NCBI GenBank assembly: GCA_964016885.1
Contig: CAXHJY010000506.1
Coordinates: 1 to 43,430, forward strand
DNA: 43,430 bases
Source of the DNA: Eledone cirrhosa
Lineage: Eukaryota
Reading direction: 5' to 3'
Shown: piece by piece, positions 21,821 to 32,945 of the stretch
Position numbering within the stretch: position 1 is the first letter of the stretch
How the letters are laid out: each line of letters starts with the position of its first letter
Position numbers and translations under genes: made by a program
The notes under the pieces: generated by a model
What the model saw: the letters and a program-made list of their open reading frames with translations, nothing else
Told to the model about the DNA's origin: nothing
Database searches by the model: none

Positions 21821-22315
21821 AATTTACGCTCTTTCAATAGCATTATCGGTTTATTTTACCAAGAGAGATAACTCATAAATACGCAATGCGGAGATGAGTA
21901 ATATCAAAGTTAATCCATTTATGAACTCTAACCACTATCGCAAATAAATTTCCCAAAAGATCTGATATCTATTCATGGCATCTGAGAGTTTCTGTGTCAT
22001 TTAATGGCTAACATGTCTGGTTACTACATGGCGCCGAAACTATTTACTGCAAGAAATGAGCAGATTAAGAGATGCATAGACTATAAGTGTCATGAACTTC
22101 AACACGTTTTAACACATCGTTTTTCTGCTTACGTTTTCGAATACGAAAACAAGTTTTGGTCATAACAAAATTAAATAAAGAACCCGAATAGTAATACTGG
22201 AGATTTTACGCCGCTAAAATATATTTTAGCGAAGTTTATGTAGCGTTAAGCAGATGAAAAGATACTAGATTTTTTTCTCTCACAATTAAGTAAAGTAATT
22301 TTTTTTTTTACTTGT

Positions 22316-22585
22316 TGACCTAGCTCCATAAACGTCTCGAACATCACAGACTGGAAGAAGTTTACAGATAATTCCCGATATTTCAGAATTTGATTTCGTT
22401 CGGCTACAGAAGCAGTGACCCTCACATTTACTGCAGCATCTAGGATGTGGGAGGGAACAAAAGAGTCATTGACTGTGGCGTTCCAGATGAAACATCTACC
22501 TCTTACCCAGGGACAAAGGGTAAGATGATCTGGTATCTTCCCATTAATTCTGAATAATCCAGCCGGCTCCAGACACTGTTACCAA
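22316..22585 (-). mobile_element. CRE-clade LINE fragment (restriction-like endonuclease region), decayed
   Basis: Reverse complement aligns with 32600-32850 (GGCTGGATTA...ATGGGAAGA.ACCAGA...GGGTCACTGCTTCT...GTTCGAGACGTTTA). Confidence 0.75.
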
Positions 22586-24938: not shown

Positions 24939-25324
24939 CAAAGGGGTCGGTGGTGTGAAACAGTTGACAACTACATCTTAGCTAGTCGGTATGAACTCTG
25001 CAACTGTTCGAATTGGCTATGGGAGCAGGCTATTTATGACCATTCTTTCCTTTGTCTCTGGGACTCGAGAATAAGCAGATGGCCGTTTGATGTCAAAGTC
25101 TCAGACATATTGGTGACTGGAAAGCCGATTCACAATGGAAACTTATGAGGCCACCAAGGTCAGCTTCATGGTGGCCGCTTGATTGTGTGAAAGAAACTCT
25201 ATTAAGGAGAGTATTATATTACTGCTACATATGTATCTATCCGAGGTAGGGCTCGCTGAATGATCGAATATTGAATAACATTTATGACAAAATCAAAGAC
25301 ATTAATTTTGTATCTATACAATAC

Positions 25325-25336
25325 ATCAATATATTT
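25325..25336 (+). other. Left target-site duplication ATCAATATATTT
   Basis: Identical 12-mer at 32171-32182; each copy directly abuts an end of the repeat array. Confidence 0.9.
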
Positions 25337-28300
25337 GAATATAGACATAGAATATTCGAAAATATTCTGTATGTTTATAATAAACATTTTGAAGACCTAA
25401 TCGCTATAGAATAGAATACGTCACGTATTACAATTAGATTCTCGATAAAAGCAAGGGAAGTAATCTACGCGTTTCATTCTCGTTAGAAATCATCAGGACT
25501 ACATATCCAGTGCTTTTATCGAGAATGACACAGCTAGAGACTTATAGAATACTTAGCTGTGTACAGGAACTGGTTTGAAAGAGCGGTTGCCGGTCCGGCA
25601 GAAATTAGAAATTGGAATAAATGCTCTGAAATAGCGATATATATGTGAATATAGACATAGAATATTCGAAAATATTCTGTATGTTTATAATAAACATTTT
25701 GAAGACCTAATCGCTATAGAATAGAATACGTCACGTATTACAATTAGATTCTCGATAAAAGCAAGGGAAGTAATCTACGCGTTTCATTCTCGTTAGAAAT
25801 CATCAGGACTACATATCCAGTGCTTTTATCGAGAATGACACAGCTAGAGACTTATAGAATACTTAGCTGTGTACAGGAACTGGTTTGAAAGAGCGGTTGC
25901 CGGTCCGGCAGAAATTAGAAATTGGAATAAATGCTCTGAAATAGCGATATATATGTGAATATAGACATAGAATATTCGAAAATATTCTGTATGTTTATAA
26001 TAAACATTTTGAAGACCTAATCGCTATAGAATAGAATACGTCACGTATTACAATTAGATTCTCGATAAAAGCAAGGGAAGTAATCTACGCGTTTCATTCT
26101 CGTTAGAAATCATCAGGACTACATATCCAGTGCTTTTATCGAGAATGACACAGCTAGAGACTTATAGAATACTTAGCTGTGTACAGGAACTGGTTTGAAA
26201 GAGCGGTTGCCGGTCCGGCAGAAATTAGAAATTGGAATAAATGCTCTGAAATAGCGATATATATGTGAATATAGACATAGAATATTCGAAAATATTCTGT
26301 ATGTTTATAATAAACATTTTGAAGACCTAATCGCTATAGAATAGAATACGTCACGTATTACAATTAGATTCTCGATAAAAGCAAGGGAAGTAATCTACGC
26401 GTTTCATTCTCGTTAGAAATCATCAGGACTACATATCCAGTGCTTTTATCGAGAATGACACAGCTAGAGACTTATAGAATACTTAGCTGTGTACAGGAAC
26501 TGGTTTGAAAGAGCGGTTGCCGGTCCGGCAGAAATTAGAAATTGGAATAAATGCTCTGAAATAGCGATATATATGTGAATATAGACATAGAATATTCGAA
26601 AATATTCTGTATGTTTATAATAAACATTTTGAAGACCTAATCGCTATAGAATAGAATACGTCACGTATTACAATTAGATTCTCGATAAAAGCAAGGGAAG
26701 TAATCTACGCGTTTCATTCTCGTTAGAAATCATCAGGACTACATATCCAGTGCTTTTATCGAGAATGACACAGCTAGAGACTTATAGAATACTTAGCTGT
26801 GTACAGGAACTGGTTTGAAAGAGCGGTTGCCGGTCCGGCAGAAATTAGAAATTGGAATAAATGCTCTGAAATAGCGATATATATGTGAATATAGACATAG
26901 AATATTCGAAAATATTCTGTATGTTTATAATAAACATTTTGAAGACCTAATCGCTATAGAATAGAATACGTCACGTATTACAATTAGATTCTCGATAAAA
27001 GCAAGGGAAGTAATCTACGCGTTTCATTCTCGTTAGAAATCATCAGGACTACATATCCAGTGCTTTTATCGAGAATGACACAGCTAGAGACTTATAGAAT
27101 ACTTAGCTGTGTACAGGAACTGGTTTGAAAGAGCGGTTGCCGGTCCGGCAGAAATTAGAAATTGGAATAAATGCTCTGAAATAGCGATATATATGTGAAT
27201 ATAGACATAGAATATTCGAAAATATTCTGTATGTTTATAATAAACATTTTGAAGACCTAATCGCTATAGAATAGAATACGTCACGTATTACAATTAGATT
27301 CTCGATAAAAGCAAGGGAAGTAATCTACGCGTTTCATTCTCGTTAGAAATCATCAGGACTACATATCCAGTGCTTTTATCGAGAATGACACAGCTAGAGA
27401 CTTATAGAATACTTAGCTGTGTACAGGAACTGGTTTGAAAGAGCGGTTGCCGGTCCGGCAGAAATTAGAAATTGGAATAAATGCTCTGAAATAGCGATAT
27501 ATATGTGAATATAGACATAGAATATTCGAAAATATTCTGTATGTTTATAATAAACATTTTGAAGACCTAATCGCTATAGAATAGAATACGTCACGTATTA
27601 CAATTAGATTCTCGATAAAAGCAAGGGAAGTAATCTACGCGTTTCATTCTCGTTAGAAATCATCAGGACTACATATCCAGTGCTTTTATCGAGAATGACA
27701 CAGCTAGAGACTTATAGAATACTTAGCTGTGTACAGGAACTGGTTTGAAAGAGCGGTTGCCGGTCCGGCAGAAATTAGAAATTGGAATAAATGCTCTGAA
27801 ATAGCGATATATATGTGAATATAGACATAGAATATTCGAAAATATTCTGTATGTTTATAATAAACATTTTGAAGACCTAATCGCTATAGAATAGAATACG
27901 TCACGTATTACAATTAGATTCTCGATAAAAGCAAGGGAAGTAATCTACGCGTTTCATTCTCGTTAGAAATCATCAGGACTACATATCCAGTGCTTTTATC
28001 GAGAATGACACAGCTAGAGACTTATAGAATACTTAGCTGTGTACAGGAACTGGTTTGAAAGAGCGGTTGCCGGTCCGGCAGAAATTAGAAATTGGAATAA
28101 ATGCTCTGAAATAGCGATATATATGTGAATATAGACATAGAATATTCGAAAATATTCTGTATGTTTATAATAAACATTTTGAAGACCTAATCGCTATAGA
28201 ATAGAATACGTCACGTATTACAATTAGATTCTCGATAAAAGCAAGGGAAGTAATCTACGCGTTTCATTCTCGTTAGAAATCATCAGGACTACATATCCAG

Positions 28301-31300
28301 TGCTTTTATCGAGAATGACACAGCTAGAGACTTATAGAATACTTAGCTGTGTACAGGAACTGGTTTGAAAGAGCGGTTGCCGGTCCGGCAGAAATTAGAA
28401 ATTGGAATAAATGCTCTGAAATAGCGATATATATGTGAATATAGACATAGAATATTCGAAAATATTCTGTATGTTTATAATAAACATTTTGAAGACCTAA
28501 TCGCTATAGAATAGAATACGTCACGTATTACAATTAGATTCTCGATAAAAGCAAGGGAAGTAATCTACGCGTTTCATTCTCGTTAGAAATCATCAGGACT
28601 ACATATCCAGTGCTTTTATCGAGAATGACACAGCTAGAGACTTATAGAATACTTAGCTGTGTACAGGAACTGGTTTGAAAGAGCGGTTGCCGGTCCGGCA
28701 GAAATTAGAAATTGGAATAAATGCTCTGAAATAGCGATATATATGTGAATATAGACATAGAATATTCGAAAATATTCTGTATGTTTATAATAAACATTTT
28801 GAAGACCTAATCGCTATAGAATAGAATACGTCACGTATTACAATTAGATTCTCGATAAAAGCAAGGGAAGTAATCTACGCGTTTCATTCTCGTTAGAAAT
28901 CATCAGGACTACATATCCAGTGCTTTTATCGAGAATGACACAGCTAGAGACTTATAGAATACTTAGCTGTGTACAGGAACTGGTTTGAAAGAGCGGTTGC
29001 CGGTCCGGCAGAAATTAGAAATTGGAATAAATGCTCTGAAATAGCGATATATATGTGAATATAGACATAGAATATTCGAAAATATTCTGTATGTTTATAA
29101 TAAACATTTTGAAGACCTAATCGCTATAGAATAGAATACGTCACGTATTACAATTAGATTCTCGATAAAAGCAAGGGAAGTAATCTACGCGTTTCATTCT
29201 CGTTAGAAATCATCAGGACTACATATCCAGTGCTTTTATCGAGAATGACACAGCTAGAGACTTATAGAATACTTAGCTGTGTACAGGAACTGGTTTGAAA
29301 GAGCGGTTGCCGGTCCGGCAGAAATTAGAAATTGGAATAAATGCTCTGAAATAGCGATATATATGTGAATATAGACATAGAATATTCGAAAATATTCTGT
29401 ATGTTTATAATAAACATTTTGAAGACCTAATCGCTATAGAATAGAATACGTCACGTATTACAATTAGATTCTCGATAAAAGCAAGGGAAGTAATCTACGC
29501 GTTTCATTCTCGTTAGAAATCATCAGGACTACATATCCAGTGCTTTTATCGAGAATGACACAGCTAGAGACTTATAGAATACTTAGCTGTGTACAGGAAC
29601 TGGTTTGAAAGAGCGGTTGCCGGTCCGGCAGAAATTAGAAATTGGAATAAATGCTCTGAAATAGCGATATATATGTGAATATAGACATAGAATATTCGAA
29701 AATATTCTGTATGTTTATAATAAACATTTTGAAGACCTAATCGCTATAGAATAGAATACGTCACGTATTACAATTAGATTCTCGATAAAAGCAAGGGAAG
29801 TAATCTACGCGTTTCATTCTCGTTAGAAATCATCAGGACTACATATCCAGTGCTTTTATCGAGAATGACACAGCTAGAGACTTATAGAATACTTAGCTGT
29901 GTACAGGAACTGGTTTGAAAGAGCGGTTGCCGGTCCGGCAGAAATTAGAAATTGGAATAAATGCTCTGAAATAGCGATATATATGTGAATATAGACATAG
30001 AATATTCGAAAATATTCTGTATGTTTATAATAAACATTTTGAAGACCTAATCGCTATAGAATAGAATACGTCACGTATTACAATTAGATTCTCGATAAAA
30101 GCAAGGGAAGTAATCTACGCGTTTCATTCTCGTTAGAAATCATCAGGACTACATATCCAGTGCTTTTATCGAGAATGACACAGCTAGAGACTTATAGAAT
30201 ACTTAGCTGTGTACAGGAACTGGTTTGAAAGAGCGGTTGCCGGTCCGGCAGAAATTAGAAATTGGAATAAATGCTCTGAAATAGCGATATATATGTGAAT
30301 ATAGACATAGAATATTCGAAAATATTCTGTATGTTTATAATAAACATTTTGAAGACCTAATCGCTATAGAATAGAATACGTCACGTATTACAATTAGATT
30401 CTCGATAAAAGCAAGGGAAGTAATCTACGCGTTTCATTCTCGTTAGAAATCATCAGGACTACATATCCAGTGCTTTTATCGAGAATGACACAGCTAGAGA
30501 CTTATAGAATACTTAGCTGTGTACAGGAACTGGTTTGAAAGAGCGGTTGCCGGTCCGGCAGAAATTAGAAATTGGAATAAATGCTCTGAAATAGCGATAT
30601 ATATGTGAATATAGACATAGAATATTCGAAAATATTCTGTATGTTTATAATAAACATTTTGAAGACCTAATCGCTATATAATAGAATACGTCACGTATTA
30701 CAATTAGATTCTCGATAAAAGCAAGGGAAGTAATCTACGCGTTTCATTCTCGTTAGAAATCATCAGGACTACATATCCAGTGCTTTTATCGAGAATGACA
30801 CAGCTAGAGACTTATAGAATACTTAGCTGTGTACAGGAACTGGTTTGAAAGAGCGGTTGCCGGTCCGGCAGAAATTAGAAATTGGAATAAATGCTCTGAA
30901 ATAGCGATATATATGTGAATATAGACATAGAATATTCGAAAATATTCTGTATGTTTATAATAAACATTTTGAAGACCTAATCGCTATAGAATAGAATACG
31001 TCACGTATTACAATTAGATTCTCGATAAAAGCAAGGGAAGTAATCTACGCGTTTCATTCTCGTTAGAAATCATCAGGACTACATATCCAGTGCTTTTATC
31101 GAGAATGACACAGCTAGAGACTTATAGAATACTTAGCTGTGTACAGGAACTGGTTTGAAAGAGCGGTTGCCGGTCCGGCAGAAATTAGAAATTGGAATAA
31201 ATGCTCTGAAATAGCGATATATATGTGAATATAGACATAGAATATTCGAAAATATTCTGTATGTTTATAATAAACATTTTGAAGACCTAATCGCTATAGA

Positions 31301-31717
31301 ATAGAATACGTCACGTATTACAATTAGATTCTCGATAAAAGCAAGGGAAGTAATCTACGCGTTTCATTCTCGTTAGAAATCATCAGGACTACATATCCAG
31401 TGCTTTTATCGAGAATGACACAGCTAGAGACTTATAGAATACTTAGCTGTGTACAGGAACTGGTTTGAAAGAGCGGTTGCCGGTCCGGCAGAAATTAGAA
31501 ATTGGAATAAATGCTCTGAAATAGCGATATATATGTGAATATAGACATAGAATATTCGAAAATATTCTGTATGTTTATAATAAACATTTTGAAGACCTAA
31601 TCGCTATAGAATAGAATACGTCACGTATTACAATTAGATTCTCGATAAAAGCAAGGGAAGTAATCTACGCGTTTCATTCTCGTTAGAAATCATCAGGACT
31701 ACATATCCAGTGCTTTT
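25337..31717. repeat. Tandem array: 20 full 310-bp units plus a 181-bp partial unit
   Basis: Units start at 25337+310n (checked at 25647 and 31537). Only one substitution seen by eye (G>T at 30679). Confidence 0.98.
25460..25502 (-). ncRNA. Minimal type I hammerhead ribozyme (first of 21 minus-strand copies, one every 310 bp, last at 31660-31702)
   Basis: Minus-strand RNA GUAGUC-CUGAUGA-U-UUCU-AACG-AGAA-U-GAAA-CGC-GUA/GAUUAC. Stem I GUAGUC/GAUUAC, core boxes CUGAUGA and GAAA, stem II UUCU/AGAA, palindromic helix III ACGCGU. Predicted cleavage after GUA (between 25466 and 25465). Confidence 0.88.
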
Positions 31718-32170
31718 AGAATCTAATTGTAATACGTGACGTATTCTATTCTATAGCGATTAGGTCTTCAAAATGTTTATTATAAACATACAGAATATTT
31801 TCGAATATTCTATGTCTATATTCACATATATATCGCTATTTCAGAGCATTTATTCCAATTTCTAATTTCTGCCGGACCGGCAACCGCTCTTTCAAACCAG
31901 TTCCTGTACACAGCTAAGTATTCTATAAGTCTCTAGCTGTGTCATTCTCGATAAAAGCACTGGATATGTAGTCCTGATGATTTCTAACGAGAATGAAACG
32001 CGTAGATTACTTCCCTTGCTTTTATCGAGAATCTAATTGTAATACGTGACGTATTCTATTCTATAGCGATTAGGTCTTCAAAATGTTTATTATAAACATA
32101 CAGAATATTTTCGAATATTCTATGTCTATATTCACATATATATCGCTATTTCAGAGCATTTATTCCAATT
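31718..32170 (+). repeat. Inverted 453-bp segment of the 310-bp repeat
   Basis: Reverse complement of 31190-31642. Confidence 0.97.
31968..32010 (+). ncRNA. Minimal type I hammerhead ribozyme, plus-strand copy
   Basis: GTAGTC CTGATGA TTTCTAACGAGAAT GAAA CGCGTA GATTAC read directly. Enclosed by a 16-bp perfect stem (31944-31959 / 32017-32032). Predicted cleavage after A32004. Confidence 0.88.
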
Positions 32171-32182
32171 ATCAATATATTT
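32171..32182 (+). other. Right target-site duplication ATCAATATATTT
   Basis: Identical to 25325-25336. Confidence 0.9.
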
Positions 32183-32439: not shown

Positions 32440-32945
32440 AAAGATCTCGGGGGATTGGATGGATTGATGTCATGTGGCCAACATTAGTGGTCTTTTCAGT
32501 CAGGACGAGCTCCGCATCTCCATTGCATTCCGAGTGGGAGCCCGCCACACCGAGCTAGACCTGATCATTAAACGGGCCCTAGCTCGAGTAAATATCCCCT
32601 CAGTTTTAGGGCTGGCTGGATTATCCAGAAGTGATGGGAAGAGACCAGACGGCCTTACCTTTTGTCCTTGGCTAAGAGGCAGGTGTCTCATCTGGACGTC
32701 ACAGTCAGTGACACTTTTGCTCCATCCCACGGTAAATGTGGGGTCACTGCTTCTATTGCCGAACGGAATAAAATCCGGAAATTCAGGGATCTATCTAACA
32801 ATTATTTTTTCCAGCCTGTGGTGTTCGAGACGTTTAGTGGAGTTGGGCCGCTGGCGGCTCGCCTTACCGAGTTGTCAGACGATGCCCGTTTGTTTCAGCG
32901 CCTACCCTCGCCATCACCCGTGGTAATACTGCGAGCGTATTAGAT
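32440..32945 (+). mobile_element. CRE-clade non-LTR retrotransposon 3' fragment (RLE endonuclease domain), frameshifted
   Basis: RHTELDLIIKRALARVNIPSVL..GLSRSDGKRPDGLTFCPWLRGRCLIW / DVTVSDTFAPSH...AERNKIRKF...FQPVVFETFSGVG, the typical RPD...D-x-T PD-(D/E)xK motif set. The zinc knuckle before RH appears deleted. Confidence 0.85.

Follow-up and report, generated by a model that had tools for sequence, protein, structure and literature searches.

The metazoan non-LTR retrozymes (Cervera and de la Pena 2020, PMC7229834; PMC7761336) are tandem arrays of ~300-nt, low-GC units, and they are non-coding, carry a type I hammerhead with a weak stem III and are flanked by duplications of more than 4 bp (PMC7229834), features that are all shared by the element described here. 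Circular retrozyme RNAs have been reported in other animals (PMC7229834), and in the proposed life cycle such circles are reverse-transcribed by Penelope-like elements, or PLEs (PMC7229834, PMC7761336). In the main text of PMC7229834, where the word "inverted" has no occurrence, metazoan retrozymes are plain tandem repeats without a motif that points to a helper, whereas the element here has two inverted arms, fixed starts and a PLE tail. A more recent preprint (Li, Clavereau, Pollet 2026, 10.64898/2026.07.22.740005) ties animal retrozymes to PLEs through co-occurrence and terminal-repeat homology, argues for a PLE origin of retrozymes and leans to local tandem amplification. The parts of that preprint drawn on here go without insertion ends, inversions, tails or per-locus haplotypes, whereas our link to PLEs is one of insertion anatomy.

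PLEs typically show inverted 5' copies, carry at one end a tail of 30-40 bp and are biased towards (TA)n (PMC8557442), and their inverted copies are flanked by 8-10-bp duplications (PMC3846280). A purified PLE protein, predicted to be a dimer, cuts and extends both target strands and begins reverse transcription at two fixed positions inside the template, one at each boundary of the tail, and in vitro neither homology nor ribozyme cleavage is required (PMC11167929). EN+ PLEs share with the present element head-to-head inverted copies, a 30-40-nt tail, (TA)n targets, duplications of ~8-12 bp, two internal starts of reverse transcription and an upstream hammerhead (PMC8557442, PMC3846280, PMC11167929); how they make tandem or inverted insertions and tails has been called unresolved (PMC8557442). 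Unlike EN+ PLEs, the element here is protein-less and repeats one 310-nt unit many times over in its arms, and the data below add that each arm uses one, and only one, of the two start sites. A further point of comparison is L1 twin priming, in which both target strands prime on one RNA and the cDNAs are joined by microhomology, leaving an inversion between the duplications. In L1, the second primer acts at variable upstream sites, non-overlapping RNA is copied and only a minority of insertions is involved, whereas here both starts are fixed, the same sequence is copied and two arms are the rule. The class of element is already known, and it is the two-arm, two-start anatomy together with one haplotype per locus that is new mechanistic evidence; no report of two-armed tailed retrozyme loci or of per-locus haplotypes was found by title and abstract, a search that most subscription papers and supplements lie outside.

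The window, by which we mean the whole 43,430-nt contig of Eledone cirrhosa that was analyzed, holds one such element. Its parts are given below, with the hammerheads identified by motif, the other parts read from the sequence, and monomer positions in the RNA sense counted from the predicted ribozyme cut.

25325..25336, plus strand: left copy of the 12-bp target-site duplication (TSD), the last T of which also fits monomer position 130
25337..31718, minus strand: long arm of 20.6 units x 310 bp, with the minus strand as RNA sense
25460..25502, minus strand: first of 21 long-arm type I hammerhead motifs, predicted cut between 25465 and 25466
30679..30679, plus strand: the sole mismatch of the element, G>T, in unit 18
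31703..31733, no strand: head-to-head arm junction, within a 15-16-nt inverted repeat that extends stem I
31718..32170, plus strand: inverted arm of 1.46 units, monomer positions 24 to 166, mismatch-free
31968..32010, plus strand: hammerhead motif of the inverted arm, predicted cut after 32004
32135..32170, plus strand: 36-nt "tail", monomer positions 131-166, the outer end reaching beyond that of the other arm (concept from PMC8557442, PMC11167929)
32171..32182, plus strand: right copy of the TSD

Much of what a preliminary description had read from this sequence stands. The window contains two copies of the 12-mer ATCAATATATTT and no more, one at 25325-25336 and the other at 32171-32182, each flush with an end of the element, and a 12-bp duplication at fixed places has a chance probability of 2.4e-7, or ~1e-4 if 10 nt of slack is allowed on each side. 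The units of the forward array differ by a single mismatch, the G>T at 30679. Measured from the predicted cut, the left end is 129 nt away on the 3' side, or 130 nt if the shared T is counted, and the flank agrees with the continuation of the repeat at 7/8 positions (ATATATTT versus ATATATGT). The reading of these features as one recent target-primed insertion, copied over several rounds, is likewise supported, with a template that appears to have had no end at the cut site. What does not hold is that the 6.8 kb are a single tandem multimer: one TSD bounds all of it, but Tandem Repeats Finder stops the array at 31718 after 20.6 copies, and the final 453 nt (31718-32170) repeat 1.46 units in inverted orientation without a mismatch. 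The outer ends of the element are accordingly inverted rather than direct repeats, with no LTRs. The long arm runs from monomer position 258 at its inner end to 129/130, the short start site, at its outer end, and the short arm from position 24 to position 166, where the end of the tail has zero homology to the target. The arms meet in the stem-forming inverted repeat of the unit, where they overlap by 1 nt and fall 4 nt short of annealing perfectly.

A search of the assembly with the right flank returned one match, the window itself, and among the short-read contigs listed for the left junction from four runs there was no end or joint of an empty allele, in contigs of a kind that drop rare alleles. 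Long degenerate AT microsatellite arrays bound the whole contig (49-14418 and 37805-43430), and broken coding remnants with a DGK(R/I)PD-L--PW--G motif lie at 32468-32943 (plus strand) and 22246-22578 (minus strand), which may represent the endonuclease end of CRE-type non-LTR retrotransposons.

The tandem unit is 310 nt long with ~35% GC, and each copy contains, as read from its sequence, a hammerhead motif consisting of a 6-bp stem I, CUGAUGA, a 4-bp stem II, GAAA and a palindromic short stem III. Rfam gave no hammerhead match for the unit even at an E value of 5, so that the assignment rests on the motif. No open reading frame of at least 100 aa was found over the element, and an RT-GIY-YIG frame is absent, so that this is not an autonomous PLE. 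With low-GC tandem units within the 150-400-nt range, a type I motif, no coding capacity, dispersed loci and TSDs longer than 4 bp, the element is by its sequence a non-coding non-LTR retrozyme with a type I hammerhead motif, for which self-cleavage is predicted. Fixed variants within the ribozyme (positions 2, 276, 277, 284, 287 and 292-295) are free or preserve pairing, 287T>A for example closing stem II. The catalytic core holds none of 34 fixed sites as against 5 of 105 singletons, a difference that is not significant given ~1.5 fixed sites expected.

We found 4,204 perfect matches to the ribozyme 37-mer across the 3.0-Gb assembly, and the family comprises ~1,750 loci in this genome. With patterns designed to match the end of the repeat and not its continuation, we counted 1,796 repeat 3' ends at positions 126-139 and 1,717 at 160-176, as against 30 in a control interval at 206-218, most of which are indel variants. 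For a closer view, 100 listed loci with the short end and 18 tail-only loci were taken from the first 164 Mb of the 443-Mb scaffold C1, leaving out two duplicate views and two old diverged fragments, for 119 elements including the window; the sample represents one chromosome, and because its loci were picked mostly by one end type, the other end is a free test. Two head-to-head arms were present in 98 of these 119, invariably RNA-minus then RNA-plus, while two of the 21 single-armed elements abut gaps. In every one of the 96 complete two-arm loci, one arm has its outer end within 115-142 and the second arm within 152-175 (with modes of 130 and 165 in the first 57), and an AT run occupies at least one flank in 95 of them. 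Loci sampled by the ribozyme 37-mer alone gave the same picture, nine of ten being two-armed with one start of each type. Since the ends fall at two sites and so rarely in the control interval, the outer ends are fixed and not circularly permuted, a point that the preliminary description had proposed to check at other loci. Its suggestion of a single primer at an arbitrary site chosen by microhomology also gives way to two primed ends, with starts fixed family-wide at ~130 and ~165; microhomology to the AU tract merely fine-tunes the short start, and the tail start of the window has none. TSD length is unmeasurable in microsatellite targets, and few loci offer a readable duplication outside them (window, 12 bp; L051, 11-14 bp).

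Three further observations concern single loci or relatives of the family. A sibling hammerhead family (L103:2449-2871; L152-L181), 78-82% identical over monomer positions 59-154, has the two-arm tailed form in L103 and 2,690 first-look candidates in the genome. The elements L065:6190-7441 and L066:5844-7402, beside an N gap, have the same inner junction and variants and are probably one insertion assembled twice. L042 has a four-part layout with 129-nt and 43-nt pieces duplicated at the inner junction, which suggests repeated switching during joining.

If both arms of a locus were copied from one molecule, they should carry the same variants, and this is usually the case. Among 78 loci in which both arms hold at least one unit there are 29 haplotypes, 22 of them seen once and each fixed throughout the units of both arms, and the arms agree, without arm-level discord, in 73 loci, as compared with the 15% expected to match under random pairing, a figure that presumes the whole set of haplotypes, although the templates in use at any given time may have been less diverse. 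The five discordant loci are L069 and L230_1 with arm-specific variants, L073 with one deviating unit, L195 with a difference inside a 16-nt junction overlap, and L201, in which the haplotype changes after two passes in both arms. On this evidence, both arms would usually have been copied from a single RNA molecule. That molecule appears to have had no end at the ribozyme cut site, as a circle or an uncut multimer would not: among 1,052 crossings of the cut there is no sporadic indel within 4 nt, the sole exceptions to a clean crossing being two inherited 1-nt insertions in 8 loci, and the 194 inner arm ends are uniformly distributed (p=0.54), with 3 near the cut as compared with 6.3 expected.

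We consider it likely that the usual template was a circle, because private variants are fixed across whole loci (a 2-nt deletion in L055, for example, is present in all 22 units) and in-register shared unit variants are too few. The preliminary description, which had proposed a circular template, held that fixed endpoints shared by all loci would argue against one, and fixed endpoints are what we found; they are nonetheless compatible with a circle because PLE reverse transcription starts at two fixed internal sites (PMC11167929), and on this point the earlier proposal is probably right. Variants common to both arms in the first pass only (L083 and L098), together with the switch in L201, suggest occasional copying from linear multimers or joint switching of template, in three loci here. 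Of four cross-arm doublets two are in register, near the ~0.9 expected by chance. Among fixed substitutions, A>G accounts for 12 of 34 sites and T>C for 4 (p=0.02, uncorrected; 11 and 4 without position 295, p=0.04, uncorrected), and A>G changes recur at positions 20 and 276 on several haplotype backgrounds, which is a hint of RNA editing of the A-to-I type. T>C singletons were at first in excess (13 vs 2), which was considered as a signature of reverse transcriptase error, but as loci were added the excess faded to 17 vs 8 (p=0.23) and the reading was dropped.

In runs X4 and X5, which come from two other organisms, there is one 340-nt closed contig each that is identical to the unit (window 25336-25645), flank-free and variant-free, at depths of 365 and 6.7. 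The plain reading is cross-contamination from a high-copy source, though a shared circular RNA may also be represented.

The two arms are similar in length without being correlated (rho 0.12, n=56), with a median of 3.4 units per arm, and at least 10 units in 18 and at least 20 units in 5 of 190 arms. At least two units are present in 141 of the 190, even in near-mutation-free loci. Insert-free inner junctions overlap by at least 2 nt in 38 of 62 cases as compared with 18% by chance, and 35 junctions contain inserts; short overlaps and inserts are as expected if two cDNA ends are joined. Singleton substitutions number 105 and partly shared variants 25. The latter include variants in 9/46, 9/46 and 5/46 units of L091 (45 units), two that recur 7 units apart in L055, and others repeated in a subset of units in L052 and L056, and it follows from these repeats that unequal exchange or conversion acts on some long arms. 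The 20.6-unit arm of the window, with one singleton, fits one-step synthesis and later growth alike. Singleton rates separate two classes (2.4e-4 vs 4.9e-4), and the window arm falls in the lower one, which is consistent with a recent insertion.

The link to PLEs rests on the anatomy of the insertions, whose start offset, inversion and (AT)n targeting are by sequence PLE hallmarks, with inversion in 98/119 elements, a tail in 96/96 complete loci and AT-rich targets in 95/96. That PLE-type double priming made the insertions of this family is in our view highly probable. The genome contains 10,596 GIY-YIG candidates, of which 150 were scored, and all five ORFs scanned have RVT_1 and/or GIY-YIG, two having both domains. 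Both L137 and L138 are PLE insertions with head-to-head arms, sited in AT runs. In the hammerhead-bearing L138 family, ends fall ~125 nt (2/7) or 160-170 nt (5/7) past the cut, nearly the spacing of the retrozyme starts, and L138 itself has one of each end type on its two arms; its alignment to the retrozyme unit is weak, with 20 of 500 shuffles scoring as well. A young PLE family represented by L132, L133 and L137 (proteins 96-98% identical, open frames of up to 938 aa) likewise has its arms head-to-head within AT runs, but its tail is longer, at ~60 nt, and a motif scan of its terminal repeat found no hammerhead. By blastn against 50 fetched GIY-YIG loci, no PLE terminal repeat was homologous to the unit save for nested sibling retrozymes, and a partner search (blastn against the 50 loci, a sibling-family search and tblastn of five PLE ORFs against the loci) found no arm that continues into a PLE ORF.

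The model that we think probable is that a PLE RT-endonuclease, primed on both nicked strands of the target, copies one RNA, probably a monomeric circle, into a two-arm element in one event. The target would be nicked at sites staggered by ~12 nt, after which the two target 3' ends would prime, one near position 165 and one near position 130, where pairing to the AUAUAUAU tract would help. Both enzymes would circle the template for a variable number of rounds, and the two cDNA 3' ends would then anneal, each serving as template for the second strand of the other. Some insertions were probably copied from uncut linear multimers, and some of the long arms expanded afterwards by unequal exchange. 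A more specific version, to which we give even chances, is that an RT-endonuclease dimer holds one 310-nt circle, primes both strands 35 nt apart and rolls twice in parallel. If so, the tail would be the offset between active sites, the inversion the normal route of second-strand synthesis, and each locus a clonal record of one RNA, including its A-to-I-type changes.

PLE double priming on a linear multimer, transcribed from a source array and left uncut, with no circle involved, would account for the in-register haplotype switch of L201 and the first-pass variants of L083 and L098, would likewise yield clean crossings of the cut and uniform inner ends, and is in keeping with unprocessed RNA being the main substrate in vitro (PMC11167929) and with the multimeric RNAs of the axolotl (PMC7229834). 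We regard it as unlikely all the same. Over 83.6 kb of paired arms, such a template predicts ~7-27 in-register shared unit variants, a rough figure assuming that source arrays carried a quarter to all of the present singleton load, and we saw 2 plus one switch; nor can it fix a private variant in every unit, yet most haplotypes were seen once, and its arrays would get shorter each generation. Were linear monomers instead copied through repeated template jumps at their ribozyme-cut ends, stem I would keep the ends of a cut monomer together, and the rare switches in L201 and L069 would fit, but the absence of sporadic indels from 1,052 crossings, the lack of an arm-end excess at the cut and the near absence of mosaic arrays despite 29 haplotypes make this very improbable, and a jump that returned to its own template molecule would amount to a circle. 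A single priming followed by fold-back self-copying of the cDNA into an inverted arm, as self-priming has been suggested for PLE inversions (PMC3846280), would account for the shared haplotypes and would be easy in the stem-forming inverted repeat that holds the junctions of the window, L046, L051 and L195. It leaves the fixed end of the second arm in 96/96 loci unexplained, and with arms similar but uncorrelated in length and most junctions away from hairpins, we give it little credence.

Local amplification, which is preferred in the Discussion of the preprint (10.64898/2026.07.22.740005), would mean here that a short PLE-type insertion of about one unit per arm grew afterwards at the DNA level, through unequal exchange or slippage. 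Unequal exchange was also the alternative named in the preliminary description, and it operates in some long arms (L091, L055): partly shared variants occur in L091, L055, L052, L056, L184 and L194, and 5/190 arms have at least 20 units, while the window arm with its one singleton does not discriminate. As the explanation for the whole family it is improbable, since arms of at least two units prevail (141/190) even in near-mutation-free loci, both arms are usually multimeric, and singletons far outnumber partly shared variants (105 vs 25); it accounts for some long arms and not for the family. An assembly artefact, a fold-back chimera in a small 43-kb contig, might be suspected because the window is that entire contig with long AT arrays at both ends, its unit number is read from the assembly, and L065/L066 resemble one insertion assembled twice. 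The same anatomy with fixed ends recurs at 97 other loci on a 443-Mb scaffold, the 12-bp duplication is exact, and a short-read contig from run X1, possibly the assembled sample itself, bridges the left junction (25021-25358), so that we find this explanation scarcely credible.

The movement of retrozymes by way of a circle and a PLE has so far been a hypothesis, for which ~1,750 young loci now provide countable genomic evidence. The loci also bear on the question of how PLEs form inversions and tails, with exact predictions: starts near 130 and 165, one per strand, and one haplotype per locus. If the double-priming model on a circle is true, rolling-circle reverse transcription would, in nature, have laid down arrays of several kilobases in an animal genome in a single step, and the family would offer an example of the birth of a satellite array.
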